From the NCBI GenBank assembly GCA_963753975.1, contig CAVWEH010000005.1:672001-736000 (forward strand): DNA of 64,000 nucleotides, read 5' to 3'. Positions 10,233-53,685 of this stretch are shown here, piece by piece; position 1 is the stretch's first letter, and the number at the start of each line of letters is the position of its first letter. This DNA comes from an uncultured delta proteobacterium. GTDB lineage: Bacteria; Desulfobacterota; Syntrophia; Syntrophales; Smithellaceae. The notes beneath the pieces are model-generated. The model saw only the letters and a list, made by a program, of their open reading frames with translations, was not told the DNA's origin and ran no database searches. The position numbers and the translations under genes were made by a program.

Positions 10233-10526
10233 TTACACAGCCTTTCTCGGTCCGTTGCAAACAGGCCTTCCGGCCTTGCGTGGTCCGCCGTAATAGAGAT
10301 ACGGGTCCGGCCAGATACGTTTGATATCGATGCCGATCCTGGCGGCAATGTGTCTGCGCACACGGTCGGAAACCGTGTTGCCCTGGATAACGTGGTAAAC
10401 GAGTTGTTGAGTCGCACCGAGTTCACGGGCAAGTTGAGATTGCGTAAGACCCGCTCTCATCATGGCAATCCGTATTTCAACGGGTTCCATGTTTTGTGGT
10501 CGCGTGACCTTCAGGTTATTGGACAT
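10233..10526 (-). CDS. Ner/Nlp-like (Mu-type) HTH regulator
   Basis: GLTQSQLARELG HTH and IAARIGIDIKRIWPDPY, resembling the Ner IWPSRY motif. Confidence 0.7.
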   Translation of the reverse strand: MSNNLKVTRPQNMEPVEIRIAMMRAGLTQSQLARELGATQQLVYHVIQGNTVSDRVRRHIAARIGIDIKRIWPDPYLYYGGPRKAGRPVCNGPRKAV

Positions 10527-10734
10527 TAATTAACCTCTTTTTTTTGAAAGGCTATTTTACTTTTTGATTAGTCCAATAAACCAATAATTAGCTCGTGTCA
10601 AGCGATAATTTGGTCTAGCTGTATTTTTTTATCAAACTTGAGTTATTTGTATATATAACATATTAATTATATTGATAAATATCATATTCTCGATAACGAC
10701 AAACAATAGACAGCGGATATGAAATTGGTGTATA

Positions 10735-11355
10735 ATGAGCGTTAATACTTTAAAAGAACGCGCAAATTGGGCGATAAATTATATTGTCGCGAAAGAACAC
10801 CTCTCTAATATTAAGCTTGGCAGACAAATGGGATTTGCGGCAGGCACAATAAATAGTTACCGGCGGATGACAACAGATCCAAGCATCGAGTTTATTCTGA
10901 AATTTTGTCAGTTATTTAAATTTAATGTTTTATGGTTTGTTTTGGGAGAAGGTTATCCTTTTCTCGGGGCGCGCGAAGCATTTCCTGAATCCAAAGGCCC
11001 CAATCCGATATCACCGCCGTCTCCCGACATTTTTGATGATCAACGTTTTACATTGAGAGAGCCAAAAACAGACTACGGCGCACCAGCCACAGAGCAAAAA
11101 ATCAGTATTGAGGAGGCTGTGGGAAAGGCATTCAAGATTCTATCGTCCGGCACGGCTCTTTCCAACACTCTTTACTTAATTATCCAGCAGTTTGCAGATG
11201 CCCTGGACGGAAGCCGGGAACTCAACGCCTGCCGGGATGAAATCAGCGAGCTAAAAGCGCAAATGCTTGAATCGCGCGGAAAGGGGGAGCGCCTCACTAC
11301 CGCTCCGTCTATAGCCACAGAGCAAATCAAGCCTTCGAGTAAAAAGACAAAGTAG
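10735..11355 (+). CDS. XRE/CI-like HTH repressor with coiled-coil C-terminus
   Basis: LGRQMGFAAGTINSY...PSIEFI...NVLWFVLGEG; divergent from the ner-like gene. Confidence 0.65.
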   Translation: MSVNTLKERANWAINYIVAKEHLSNIKLGRQMGFAAGTINSYRRMTTDPSIEFILKFCQLFKFNVLWFVLGEGYPFLGAREAFPESKGPNPISPPSPDIFDDQRFTLREPKTDYGAPATEQKISIEEAVGKAFKILSSGTALSNTLYLIIQQFADALDGSRELNACRDEISELKAQMLESRGKGERLTTAPSIATEQIKPSSKKTK

Positions 11356-34653: not shown

Positions 34654-34926
34654 AATGAAACTCAAATTTCCAAAACGAAGTGTATAACCTGAAGGTCACA
34701 CGTTGAAATTTGCGGAGCTTCAAGAGAACAGTCGAAGACTCTTTTCCAACATGCGACGTCCCGCAAAGTACAGCGGGGTTAGTTGAATTGATCCCGCCAT
34801 AGGCGGAGGGTATCGTAGATACCCGTGGTGCATGGAACTCAAATTTCCAAAACGAAGCGCATGGAAATTTGTTAGTTGTAATGAGACCCAAACTTCAGAA
34901 ACAGAATGCATGACCTAAAGGTCACG
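34654..34926 (+). repeat. Three tandem copies of the ATGARACTC-hairpin dispersed element
   Basis: Units begin at 34654, 34831 and 34880; the first matches 39184-39300 over about 115 nt. Confidence 0.75.
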
Positions 34927-35000
34927 TCACCCCGTGAATATAATTATTGAACAAATCATATAACAGATGTAAATCAATACAGAATAAGGAGGCGCTGCCA

Positions 35001-39183: not shown

Positions 39184-39300
39184 AATGAGACTCAAATTTC
39201 GGAAACGAAGTGCGCCGAAATTTGCGGAGCCTCAAAAAGGCATCTGAAAACTCTTTTTCAACATGCGACGTCCCGCAAAATGTAGCGGGATCAGTCGAAT
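39184..39300 (+). repeat. ATGARACTC-hairpin dispersed element copy
   Basis: AATGAGACT-CAAATTTCGG-12 nt-CCGAAATTTG-CGGAG...CAACATGCGACGTCCCGC; matches the 34654 copy. Confidence 0.75.
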
Positions 39301-40907: not shown

Positions 40908-40988
40908 TTATCCCCATGCGCTTCGCTTAGGGCATCAATTCGGCTAGCAATTATTACTTAGTTTCTCTCGTAATAATTGAGTCTCATT
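40908..40988 (-). repeat. ATGARACTC-hairpin element, subfamily B
   Basis: Minus strand AATGAGACT-CAATTATTAC-12 nt-GTAATAATTG-CTAGCCGAA; matches the 43386 copy. Confidence 0.7.
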
Positions 40989-43387: not shown

Positions 43388-43466
43388 TGAGACTCAAATA
43401 TTGCGAGTATAACAAAGCAATATTTGCTAGCCGAACTATCCCCGAAGCGCAGCGGAGCGGGATAAC
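43386..43466 (+). repeat. ATGARACTC-hairpin element, subfamily B
   Basis: GTGAGACT-CAAATATTGC-12 nt-GCAATATTTG-CTAGCCGAA. Confidence 0.7.
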
Positions 43467-47296: not shown

Positions 47297-47298
47297 GT

Positions 47299-47376
47299 GG
47301 AGAGATACCGAAGTGGTCGTAGCGGGATCGACTCGCCCGGCATGCGCCGGGCGTCCGGCGAATGTCGGACGAAATC
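47299..47376 (+). pseudogene. Duplicated 5' half of tRNA-Ser(CGA), interrupted in the anticodon loop by 36 nt of hairpins
   Basis: 47299-47335 matches 47650-47686 with one mismatch; resumes with AAATC after the insert. Confidence 0.85.
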
Positions 47377-47392
47377 TACAATAATTGATATT

Positions 47393-47647
47393 ATGTATTA
47401 CGTTTACATACTACAAAGTGAACGGGATAAAGAATTTTATGTTGGAAGGACTAGTGATCTTAAAAGAAGATATTCGGAACATCAGGCAGGCCGTGTAGAA
47501 TCGACAAGACACAGGTTGCCCATGAAGTTGTTATGTTACGAGGCTTATAGCACGAAAGAAGAATCAGCCAGGCGGGAAGAATATCTAAAAACGAGTGATG
47601 GAAGAAAAGATATCAGGAAACGAATTATAGAAAGCCTGATTAAATAG
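47393..47647 (+). CDS. Small GIY-YIG nuclease
   Basis: MYYVYILQS...FYVGRTSDLKRRYSEH...REEYLK, 84 aa. Confidence 0.9.
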   Translation: MYYVYILQSERDKEFYVGRTSDLKRRYSEHQAGRVESTRHRLPMKLLCYEAYSTKEESARREEYLKTSDGRKDIRKRIIESLIK

Positions 47648-47649
47648 AC

Positions 47650-47743
47650 GGAGAGATACCGAAGTGGTCGTAACGGGATCGACTCGAAATCGATTTGGGG
47701 GCCACAAGCTCTCACGGGGGTTCGAATCCCCCTCTCTCCGCCA
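47650..47743 (+). tRNA. tRNA-Ser (CGA)
   Basis: Acceptor GGAGAGA/TCTCTCC; anticodon arm ATCGA-CTCGAAA-TCGAT; long variable arm; G73 and CCA. Confidence 0.95.
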
Positions 47744-47802
47744 GAAATAGATACGGAGATGTAATATGTTACGTCTCCATAGTTAAAAATATTGTAATGA
47801 CC

Positions 47803-47896
47803 GGAGAGATGTCCGAGCGGCTTAAGGAGCACGACTGGAAATCGTGTGTATGCCCACAAAGGTGTACCGCGGGTTCAAATCCCGCTCTCTCCGCCA
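47803..47896 (+). tRNA. tRNA-Ser (GGA)
   Basis: Acceptor GGAGAGA/TCTCTCC; anticodon arm CACGA-CTGGAAA-TCGTG; long variable arm; CCA. Confidence 0.95.
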
Positions 47897-47938
47897 TTTA
47901 TTACTGTAGATAGATAGTAAGGAAGCGTTCATAATGAT

Positions 47939-48020
47939 CGGGTTCACCCGGCACGTGTGACCTTTAGGTTATACGCCGGGTAGTCCGGCGAATGCCGGAC
48001 AAATCCCGCTCTCTCCGCCA
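47939..48020 (+). pseudogene. Duplicated 3' end of tRNA-Ser(GGA), interrupted in the T-loop by nested hairpins
   Basis: CGGGTTC-[insert]-AAATCCCGCTCTCTCCGCCA. Confidence 0.8.
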
Positions 48021-51206: not shown

Positions 51207-51334
51207 ATTATACCGGAAAAAGTCTCCAGCATGCGCCGGACTGCGCATATGCGGAGTTTATCCGGCGTATGCCGGATGCGCGTTTCATCCTCTGGTCTTG
51301 CGCGCCTTGCCTCTGGAGCTTTTTGCGGTATAAT
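51207..51334. repeat. 128-nt palindromic MITE-like element (family C, copy 1)
   Basis: Terminal arms ATTATACCG..AAAAG / CTTTT..CGGTATAAT; body close to 53558-53685. Confidence 0.8.
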
Positions 51335-51431: not shown

Positions 51432-53135
51432 TTGGAATATCTCGTCCTAGCCCGAAAATTTCGGCCGCAGTCTTTTGAGGACGTTGCCGGTCAGGAACAT
51501 GTCGTGAAAACCCTGAGAAACGCTATAAGCCGGGGCCGCGTTGCCCACGCGTTTCTTTTCAGCGGTCCGCGCGGTATCGGTAAAACCTCGGTCGCCAGAA
51601 TTCTCGCCAAATCGCTCAATTGCGAAAAAGGCCCGACGCCTATTCCCTGCAATGTCTGCTCCAACTGCCGTGAAATAACCGACGGCTCTTCACTGGATGT
51701 GCGCGAAATTGACGGTGCTTCCAACCGCGGAATCGACGAAATTCGGGAACTGCGGGAAAACGTTAAATTTGCTCCGGCGGCATCCAAATATAAAATCTAT
51801 ATTATCGACGAAGTGCACATGCTCACTAGGGAAGCTTTCAACGCCCTTTTGAAAACGCTGGAAGAACCGCCCTCCCACGTAATTTTTATTTTTGCGACAA
51901 CCGAAAGCCATAAAGTTCCTGCTACCATTCTTTCCCGTTGCCAATGCTATGATTTTCGCCGGATATCGCTCAAAGAAATAATCGCTAATCTGGGCAAGAT
52001 AGCCACGGCGGAAGGAATAAAAATAAGTCCAGCCGCTCTTACCTGGATTGCTGAAGCTGGTGACGGAAGTATGCGCGACGCGCAAAGCATATTCGACCAA
52101 ATCATTTCGTATGCCGGAACAAATATTAAAGATGCCGATGTAGAGGAAAACCTGGGACTTACGGACCGGAAGTATCTATTTGTCCTTTCCGAAGCCGTCT
52201 TACAGAGGAATGCCGGTACCTGTCTGAATATCCTTGAAGAAGCATATTTAGCGGGTATTGACATGAAGCATTTTTATCAAATGCTGCTCAAACATTTCCG
52301 AAATTTGCTTCTGGTTAAAATTGCCGGCTCTGCCAGTTCTTCTTTCGATATCGCGCCGGAGGAAATTGAAAAACTAAAAAATCAAACCAATACCGTATCG
52401 CGTGAAACTTTACAGCGCCTGGCGGAAATTTTAATCGCCGAAGAAGAAAGTTTTCGCCGCAGTCAGGAGCCGCGGATGAAACTGGAGGCTGTACTTGTGA
52501 AGATGGCTTATCTGGAACCGATAATTCCTCTGGGTGAAATTGTGGCGACAATCGAAGCCATCGAACAAAAACTTCGCCAGGGTTTGCCTGCAGCTGCCGG
52601 CAATATTGGAGAGCAACTTGCAACAAATAAACAGGTAAAAGAAATACCTGCTGATTACGGCGCCAAAATTAATATCACCGATGAAAAAAATAATGAGGAT
52701 AGCTTAGCTGGTCAGAATAAGCCTACCGATGATCTGAGAATTCTTTCCGATAATTTGAAGAAATTTATCAAAAAGGAGAATGCGATACTTGGAGCAAAAA
52801 TTGACTCTGCCGAAATTTTAAGTTACGAGAACGGCTGCCTTACGCTGGGATTCCCTAAGGGATTCATATTCCTCGAGGACATCAAAGCCAAAAAGCAAAA
52901 GGATCAACTGGAGCAAATCGCTGGGAAATTTTTCCAGGCTGATGTGACAATAAATATTGCCACTACCGAGGCAGATAAGATAAATACAAACGGCAATAAT
53001 GGGCGCGGCAAAACCAATAGCTTAAGCGACATGAAACGGGAAGCGATAAACCATCCGCTTTTGCAGAAAGTTATGGACGAATTTGCCGGCGCCGAAGTAA
53101 TAGAAATTAAAGCGCGGACAGATAAACCCCGTTAG
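51432..53135 (+). CDS. dnaX: DNA polymerase III subunit gamma/tau
   Basis: LARKFRPQ, GPRGIGKTS, zinc Cys cluster, IDEVHML, SRC; TTG start with AGGAG RBS. Confidence 0.96.
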   Translation: MEYLVLARKFRPQSFEDVAGQEHVVKTLRNAISRGRVAHAFLFSGPRGIGKTSVARILAKSLNCEKGPTPIPCNVCSNCREITDGSSLDVREIDGASNRGIDEIRELRENVKFAPAASKYKIYIIDEVHMLTREAFNALLKTLEEPPSHVIFIFATTESHKVPATILSRCQCYDFRRISLKEIIANLGKIATAEGIKISPAALTWIAEAGDGSMRDAQSIFDQIISYAGTNIKDADVEENLGLTDRKYLFVLSEAVLQRNAGTCLNILEEAYLAGIDMKHFYQMLLKHFRNLLLVKIAGSASSSFDIAPEEIEKLKNQTNTVSRETLQRLAEILIAEEESFRRSQEPRMKLEAVLVKMAYLEPIIPLGEIVATIEAIEQKLRQGLPAAAGNIGEQLATNKQVKEIPADYGAKINITDEKNNEDSLAGQNKPTDDLRILSDNLKKFIKKENAILGAKIDSAEILSYENGCLTLGFPKGFIFLEDIKAKKQKDQLEQIAGKFFQADVTINIATTEADKINTNGNNGRGKTNSLSDMKREAINHPLLQKVMDEFAGAEVIEIKARTDKPR

Positions 53136-53217
53136 TCCCGTTAGAAATCAGAGGACATATGTTAAAAGAAGAGTTTGGATTGTTTGAACCAAGGTGAGCG
53201 TGAGATTTCTAACGGGA
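53136..53217. repeat. Small element with perfect 14-bp terminal inverted repeats
   Basis: TCCCGTTAGAAATC ... GATTTCTAACGGGA around a 54-nt spacer. Confidence 0.75.
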
Positions 53218-53557: not shown

Positions 53558-53685
53558 ATGACACGGCCAAAAGTCTCCGGCATACGCCGGACTGCGCATA
53601 TGCGGAGTTTATCCGGCGTATGCCGGATGCGCATTTCATCCTTCGACCTCGCGCGCCTTGCTTCTGGAACTTTTGGTGGAGTCAT
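53558..53685. repeat. 128-nt palindromic MITE-like element (family C, copy 2)
   Basis: ATGAC..CCAAAAGT / ACTTTTGG..GTCAT arms; core shared with the 51207 copy. Confidence 0.8.

Follow-up and report, generated by a model that had tools for sequence, protein, structure and literature searches.

Two families of 18-22-nt hairpin units inserted into hairpin loops in a Smithellaceae genome and its relatives

Described small repeats and the units studied here

The very small hairpins of the Nostocaceae, SDR1-8, were reportedly described by Elhai et al. 2008 as clade-restricted, 21-27 nt long, and inserting at preferred sites inside other repeats and inside their own copies. The units that we analyse here stand in a 64,000-nt stretch of contig CAVWEH010000005.1 (the window), from an uncultured member of the Smithellaceae, and elsewhere in that genome (G000) and its relatives; they form two families, A and B. 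Set against that description, their behaviour appears closest to that of the cyanobacterial SDRs: they nest in their own copies and in other repeats and are restricted to a clade, as SDRs are said to be. They differ from SDRs in occurring in another phylum and in being 18-22 nt long rather than the reported 21-27 nt, and are set apart by description in that B takes a hairpin geometry rather than one sequence as its target and has an apparent origin in an initiator tRNA. SDR5 inserts in HIP1, according to the available portion of PMC5861425.

The GTAG and CGTC REPs that accompany RAYT/TnpA-REP enzymes, as presented in the accessible text of PMC3733652 and PMC8266576, resemble A and B in their short hairpin, 5' tag, strand-specific G.T pairs, head/tail dimers and intergenic position. 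Unlike these REPs, most A and B units lack GTAG or CGTC (GTAG stands just 5' of the hairpin in 8 of the 73 B copies of G000, and 11 of 65 A contexts have a GTAG head, 4, or a GCAG head, 7), G000 has no RAYT, and B inserts into both kinds of REP rather than standing free. Nor is B the repeat that flanks a cognate Y1 gene: the RAYT genes of G021 and G022 are flanked by another REP, of the GTAG kind, which holds inserted B. B cores were not found in four text supplementary files of PMC3733652. The available sections of PMC8266576 treat the spread of REPs as an open question, and those of PMC3733652 do the same for CGTC repeats.

SsnA of Neisseria (cd10448) is, in the available sections of PMC11893778, a single-domain GIY-YIG protein that binds a single-stranded DNA hairpin and cuts a few bases 5' of it; its gene is flanked by its own hairpin repeats, such units are proposed as possible domesticated mobile elements, and insertion of hairpins is no part of the description in those sections. 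The window also has a single-domain GIY-YIG gene with hairpin repeats on its flanks, as in this Ssn/NTS(SRM) arrangement, but its flanking repeats are A pairs in tRNA copies. No CGTC(A)-headed hairpin lies within 400 nt of the window gene, where A and B are found instead, and a 20-row tree puts its product in a nine-row group (95/89) apart from the CGTC-flanked proteins, with which it shares 33-44% identity, and so outside the cd10448 clade. A cut of the SsnA type, 5' of a hairpin, would fit the short, variable heads of A and B. On the features tested, and as far as the available text of these sources describes them, the GTAG REPs and the Ssn/SRM repeats do not take in A and B. An earlier note on the window had proposed a candidate new system.

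Rickettsia palindromic elements (PMC3733652) and mitochondrial double-hairpin and repetitive hairpin elements (PMC2800124) are likewise, in the sections available, gene-less palindromes that appear as insertions, some of them double; RPE-1 is longer and intragenic by that description, whereas A and B measure 18-22 nt, lie between genes and need not be a multiple of three in length. In the literature searched (subscription papers and bioRxiv supplements excluded), these units, bacterial tRNA-derived micro-elements and Smithella repeats are not described. What is new here is the correspondence, in sequence, of the 18-nt B unit to positions 36-53 of initiator tRNA-Met. The two families offer exact junctions, both empty and filled sites, a target rule and an order of nesting, and close relatives have anywhere between 0 and 185 B cores; comparison and assay can therefore be used to look for the enzyme. 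If true, a mobile unit made from a segment of a tRNA gene would be new biology, and possibly a tool, as would the nuclease-driven writing of short DNA into hairpin loops without a transposase.

The tRNA-Ser cassette and its nuclease gene

The source genome comprises 2.43 Mb and is 95% complete; no 16S gene was found in it by primer motif. Downstream of tadA it has, all on the plus strand, a 5' copy of tRNA-Ser(CGA) (47299..47376), a GIY-YIG nuclease gene of 84 aa (47393..47647), intact genes for tRNA-Ser(CGA) and tRNA-Ser(GGA) (47650..47743 and 47803..47896), which are the templates for the 5' and the 3' copy respectively, and the 3' copy of tRNA-Ser(GGA) (47940..48020). The 5' copy is split in its anticodon loop, between positions 35 and 36, by a head-to-head pair of A units that occupies 36 nt (47336..47371, without overall strand): a 16-nt core on the minus strand (47336-47351), CG, a 16-nt core on the plus strand (47354-47369) and CG. 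The whole insert reads CG, 16-nt hairpin, CG, 16-nt hairpin in the opposite orientation, CG, and the earlier note had seen both hairpins correctly. In the 3' copy it is the T-loop that is filled, with an interrupted A core (47947-47980), a TAG centre, a second A core (47984-47999) and a duplicated CA; the insert measures 55 nt and not the 54 nt first read. Nested in the loop of the first A hairpin is an 18-nt B unit (B18; 47954..47971, minus strand), the inner 18-mer of the same note, and G007 has the A pair at this T-loop site with the inner 18-mer absent. An A pair, a nested B and the nuclease gene thus all stand at one locus of the window. Local folds of the tRNA copies beat all 200 shuffles.

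Among 24 relatives in which the region upstream of tRNA-Ser(CGA) is visible, G001 and G003 share the half-tRNA, the pair and the gene, the pair having the same layout and different hairpin sequences; G011 has a decayed half-tRNA without the gene, and the other 21 have none of these. Followed upstream, the GIY-YIG frame meets no stop in the 36-nt pair or the tRNA half and reaches a GTG directly after the tadA stop (116 aa; 47297-47647), and the corresponding open frames in G001 and G003 are 109 aa. At another locus (L012, G015:C21) two tRNA-Ser genes are apparently fused, the 5' part of the CGA gene being joined to the GGA gene. No sequencing run contained more than 0.10 of the words searched and no RNA run was among those listed; four sequencing runs gave contigs of relatives only.

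The 84-aa protein matches PF01541 (E 1e-15) and keeps, read in translation, Tyr, Tyr, Arg, His and Glu, which we take to be the residues expected of the GIY-YIG family. Neither NCBIfam nor PHROGs gave it a family, and its closest homologues are labelled Smithella or Syntrophaceae. Together with the tree, its closest solved structures, 1zg2 and 1ywl, whose proteins are named as bacterial Slx1 members in the available part of PMC1564403, place it in the stand-alone, bacterial Slx1-like type. At 80 loci of GIY-YIG homologues from many phyla, a tRNA gene lies within 400 nt in 47, and a hairpin-split tRNA copy is present in 13, two of them weak.

A MITE is marked by terminal inverted repeats and a target-site duplication; A pairs have inverted ends and a 2-nt duplication at most sites, with none at a tRNA-Ser(TGA) anticodon site, and B has no duplication. 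Their centre can be the reverse complement of the duplicated dinucleotide, as would be expected if each strand end extends and folds back: a duplicated CA with a TG centre fits L139, at the same T-loop site as in the window, and L167, in a tRNA-His of another phylum. The exceptions are the window's own TAG, which is one base off, and the tRNA-Ser(TGA) anticodon site, which breaks the rule; L141, L143, L189 and L195 give no clear reading. The adjacent GIY-YIG gene, which the earlier note had named as a candidate enzyme, is a reasonable one where the A pairs of the tRNA copies are concerned. That proposal does not extend to B. Close orthologues of the window nuclease (79-85%) occur only in G001 and G003, which have 0 and 3 B cores, and none at E<=1e-8 was found in the B-rich G020, G021, G006 and G005 (185, 89, 61 and 54 cores); within the limits of incomplete genomes, the gene does not track B and is not needed for it. 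Every family genome has some other small GIY-YIG gene, so that an enzyme of this kind may act in trans. A search for small GIY-YIG ORFs by motif used too narrow a pattern and missed known ones.

Structure, mobility and target sites of the two families

The inserts belong to two unrelated families with no sequence in common, which the earlier note had merged into one class of hairpin. B consists of a 14-nt core, TAACCTRAAGGTCA, and a tail of 4-8 nt; A has a 16-nt core and a further 2-6 nt, so both come to 18-22 nt. In each unit a small hairpin is preceded, on one strand, by a short 5' head, and the hairpins are strand-specific, with G.T pairs. The heads of A end in G and lie on the 5' side (CTTG 10, CCTG 9, GCAG 7, GAAG 7 and others, in 65 contexts), and in variants of the B stem both arms change together. 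A relaxed pattern found 73 B cores in G000 against 0, 1 and 0 in three shuffled genomes, far more than chance would give, and 71 of the 73 lie outside ORFs of at least 150 aa, which make up 77% of the genome. By the tail rule, the 72 parsed B units of G000 measure 18 nt (29), 20 nt (21), 21 nt (18), 22 nt (3) and 19 nt (1); empty sister sites likewise give B lengths of mostly 18, 20 and 21 nt, and A inserts vary from 18 to 22 nt. The fixed length and the preservation of frame that had been proposed therefore both fail, as 43 of 72 B units differ from 18 nt in length and 25 of 72 are not multiples of three. The 18-nt form is nonetheless common, with 29 of 39 units in G011 (1.98 of 2.8 Mb read) and 38 of 38 in 20 chosen stretches of G020.

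Of 24 other family genomes, 22 have the exact B core, with copy numbers that run from 0 to 185, and so do 2 of 16 genomes outside the family; the 18-nt form occurs in seven of seven family genomes, with single matches in 2 of 393 others of the phylum. For family A, 23 of 24 family genomes and 2 of 16 others have copies. These structures are not an assembly error, because the same ones stand in independently assembled genomes. G020 also has B variants with both arms changed (CCACCT..AGGTGG, TCACCT..AGGTGA and TACCCT..AGGGCA; L295, L292, L303), which nest with canonical B up to four levels.

Elsewhere in the window, a B18 unit (34685..34702, plus) lies in a host hairpin repeat (34657-34715), where it is the 18-nt gap against the sisters at 39187 and 34834; the empty sister (39187..39224, plus) aligns with the filled repeat, and the 18-nt difference reported between the repeats at 34654 and 39184 was found as described. 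A B22-type unit of 22 nt (34911..34932, plus) is inside a truncated second host hairpin, so the related unit noted at 34909 is real without being an 18-mer, while that at 10501 is indeed one (10501..10518, minus). The latter is one of the sites that lack a host hairpin; it lies 5'-terminally in a phage-type repressor ORF (10233-10526, minus). It is in frame within the first codons of this short repressor, or just upstream of it if the second Met is the start, and the phage-type repressor genes at 10233-11355 form a divergent pair that is likely a prophage remnant.

The repeat at 53558, which had been read as three tandem 18-nt hairpins, proved to hold two A insertions around host sequence, one of 21 nt (16-nt core and 5-nt head; 53576..53596, minus) and one of 19 nt (53609..53627, plus). 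Both are absent from the G011 orthologue, which shows gaps of 21 and 19 nt and identifies the middle 'hairpin' as host sequence plus the head of the first insert. A second copy of this doubly filled host repeat is at 51207..51328 (plus), with A cores at 51225-51240 and 51261-51276, where G011 has a different repeat.

Comparison of G000 with G011 (1.41 Mb aligned at 86% identity; these two genomes) gave 53 clean indels of 13-30 nt, the commonest lengths being 21 nt (8) and 18 nt (7). Ten of the 53 are A or B units (B of 17, 18, 18, 18, 20, 21 and 21 nt; A of 21, 21 and 21 nt), of which two are self-insertions where G011 has just the outer B, and a B variant lies inside one further indel of 23 nt. 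In the aligned blocks, 13 B units of G000 comprise four that face an empty site, four whose host is missing, two shared and three unclear; for 14 B units of G011 the corresponding counts are 2, 2, 5 and 5. In one host loop G000 has B where G011 has A; in a second it is the other way round. Because many B copies share a host repeat, there have been fewer events than copies (24 contexts for 72 sites).

With each unit removed in silico and the remaining DNA folded to minimum energy, a terminal loop contained or bordered the junction in 11 of 24 contexts in G000, 7 of 17 in G011 and 4 of 14 in G020; nearby offsets gave 9-18% and random positions 22%. This test missed hosts with weakly folding big loops, so the measure was changed after the result had been seen. 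A stem arm of at least 5 bp that starts within one base of the junction was then found in 14/24 (G000), 10/17 (G011), 6/14 (G020) and 7/14 (viral, one of the 14 contexts being a tRNA-Met fragment with no insertion), against 6-9% of controls (9% in G000). The usual site of B is the junction of a hairpin loop and its 3' arm, often within B itself, and its hosts include several family repeats, A, B, the CGTC repeats beside Ssn-type genes and the GTAG REPs beside RAYT genes. Geometry rather than host sequence picks about half of B sites; the remaining half or so, such as 10501, lack such a stem arm. Serial, nested, loop-directed insertion, as the earlier note had put it, is supported by these arm junctions together with the empty orthologous sites in relatives and the self-insertions. 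This is a real and unusually well-resolved case of micro-element mobility.

Insertions of B into B were collected from metagenomes (122 stretches, of which 80 had flanks; 78 contexts were distinct and 70 could be parsed). No target duplication accompanies B, its boundaries in self-insertions are unique, and self-insertion uses one exact position across 33 combinations of inner and outer tails. The inner, youngest unit is dominantly of 18 nt (66 of 70), under a pattern that leaves out inner 21-nt and some 20-nt forms. In G020, two to four unlike B18 units can follow one another in tandem and nests reach four levels; some of these arrays lie next to assembly gaps.

Origin of B and the activities that could move it

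The 18-nt B pattern has 23 viral matches, two of which are intact tRNA-Met(CAT) genes where it covers exactly positions 36-53 (18/18); a tRNA-Met fragment at L354 is identical to another B18 variant. The match was noticed after the fact. In six sister genomes the initiator tRNA equals one B18 variant at 17 of 18 positions, and the one difference is a C-to-T change that closes the stem. G000's own initiator tRNA reaches 13-16/18 against the B18 variants, always the best of 5618 tRNA windows, and shuffles of the commonest variant reached its score of 14 in 68 of 5000 cases and 15 in 6 of 5000. The flanks of B18 agree with tRNA-Met as well (A on the left in 83 of 100 units, T on the right in 71 of 100), and the left boundary (35/36) coincides with the insertion point of the window's A pair in the anticodon loop; the boundary on the T-loop side (53/54) is 2 nt off the A-pair site. 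From this resemblance we think it likely that B18 began as positions 36-53 of initiator tRNA-Met. No dispersed B copy equals the host's own tRNA segment, and in just two of those seen is the C of tRNA position 41 retained; as the dispersed copies differ from the resident tRNA, B copies would come from B. B also shares 11 nt with the RAYT-flanking REP, so the likeness to tRNA-Met may have arisen by convergence on a short loop motif. For family A the best match to a tRNA is 12/18, which is chance level.

Our preferred reading, which we regard as somewhat more probable than its competitors together, is that A and B are two families of non-autonomous micro-elements, directed to hairpins by a trans-acting enzyme and copied through single-stranded DNA. 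A and B are present or absent at orthologous sites, and B is added without duplication, mostly where a loop meets a stem arm; because it inserts regardless of the sequence of the host hairpin, it stacks in tandem and nests in itself and in A. A stands in head-to-head pairs with a 2-nt duplication in the loops of duplicated tRNA pieces. A structure-reading nuclease would nick the host hairpin and the donor unit would be joined or copied into the nick, presumably by way of single-stranded DNA and by an enzyme acting in trans; an A pair would be the product of nicks on both strands. For A pairs the best candidate would be the cassette's own nuclease, the small Slx1-like GIY-YIG protein. That gene is not the candidate for B, where some host activity common to the family, or a different small GIY-YIG protein, seems likelier than a transposase; after its probable start in tRNA-Met B18 would have been copied from its own kind. 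We offer as a speculative and rather unlikely extension that one chemistry could cover everything, as a distinct class of mobile DNA that needs no transposase: tiny Slx1-like GIY-YIG enzymes might nick single-stranded hairpin loops, chiefly those of tRNA genes, and the 18-22-nt pieces released from between nicks might rejoin in other nicked hairpins, yielding split tRNAs, A pairs and B nests, with B18 a piece of initiator tRNA-Met, from anticodon to T loop, that became self-copying after one stem-closing change.

Among the enzymes searched (GIY-YIG, RAYT, reverse transcriptase and IS110) none tracks B across the family genomes. PF00078 (reverse transcriptase) matched in one of five B-rich genomes and PF01548 (IS110) in two of the five, not including G000; a search of the five for PF04986 gave no match, but its control matched nowhere either, so it is uninformative. 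A GIY-YIG gene of the UPF0213 type is present in all 24 family genomes examined and shares B's range, yet it is mostly single-copy, also occurs in B-poor genomes and is not regularly flanked by repeats; it is an unsupported candidate for the B enzyme.

An unlikely alternative treats both families as atypical REPs, which a RAYT/HUH (Y1) enzyme, present in the lineage for a time and since lost, would have moved through cleavage and strand transfer on single-stranded DNA. Such an enzyme would account for a strand-specific hairpin with G.T pairs that enters without target duplication, for the GTAG and GCAG heads of a minority of copies, and for the GTAG REPs beside the RAYT genes of G021 and G022, which share the 11-nt loop core with B and hold B themselves. 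RAYT, the other enzyme that the earlier note had put forward, has however no PF01797 match in G000, 95% complete as it is, or in the B-rich G002, G005, G010 and G011, while PF01797 is present in the B-poor G004, G007, G008 and G012; it also occurs in the B-rich G006, G013, G019, G020, G021 and G024. REPs of the G021/G022 type occur in 0 of 14 genus members and are absent from G020 with its 185 cores. The commonest heads are CTTG, CGTG and CGCG, and the junctions have no constant CT or CA dinucleotide, the sites at which TnpA-REP cleaves and transfers strands (PMC8266576). We give still less credit to the idea that no dedicated activity exists and that a few templated insertions, made by chance at broken hairpins, became widespread as the larger host repeats were amplified and through gene conversion and slippage. 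The collapse of 72 sites into 24 contexts would suit it, as would the two adjacent paralogous hosts filled in opposite genomes, the coming and going of whole hosts, and the tandem runs of G020 that adjoin assembly gaps. It is already strained by 41 distinct target contexts across four data sets, which include unrelated REP types and phage DNA, by identical 20- and 21-nt forms that recur in at least three unrelated hosts, and by the one exact position of self-insertion.

Two further explanations are very improbable. If a reverse transcriptase working at DNA breaks newly wrote each B copy with tRNA-Met as template, the agreement of B18 and its flanks with positions 36-53 and the retron-type reverse transcriptase of G000 would follow, but the absence of any copy equal to the host segment and the near-loss of C41 largely refute it. 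A retroposed tRNA fragment is likewise a poor description of units that match the resident gene at 13-16 of 18 positions, with a reverse transcriptase found in one of five B-rich genomes, and the 19-22-nt forms and compensated stem variants are unlike any tRNA. The single system of the earlier note, in which units of both families, always 18 nt long and frame-preserving, are inserted by the neighbouring GIY-YIG gene, can draw on the meeting of A pair, nested B and gene at one locus, on the 18 nt of the youngest B layer and on the left boundary of B at the A insertion point of the anticodon loop. The lengths of 18-22 nt and the restriction of close orthologues to G001 and G003 speak against it, and as an obligatory partner of B the gene is refuted within the limits of incomplete genomes.

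Several smaller observations concern other repeats and genes. At L055 (1058-2244; G000:C2) the retron-type reverse transcriptase gene (best match NF038233, below cut-off) directly follows an Xre-type HTH gene and is probably part of a defence locus. At L273 (G022:C13; 1000-1250 and 2200-2400) a RAYT gene and REPs stand inside what appears by eye to be a diversity-generating retroelement, with a template-repeat-like, AAC-rich stretch upstream and an RT-like ORF downstream. After the SRP RNA and after recR (51207 and 54345 in the window, compared with L125), G000 and G011 have different host repeats, so that one whole repeat takes the place of another at a fixed site. An acyl-CoA dehydrogenase gene is enclosed by two copies of a host hairpin repeat (40939-40986 and 43388-43435), which are inverted and stand 2.4 kb apart. 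Between dnaX and ybaB (53127-53216) is a third repeat, with CCCCGTTAG / TCTAACGGG ends; the repeat with these ends also flanks a second Slx1-like GIY-YIG gene in G000 (L002, G000:C1:309217), G002 and G010, and a separate repeat seems to go with each type of small GIY-YIG gene.
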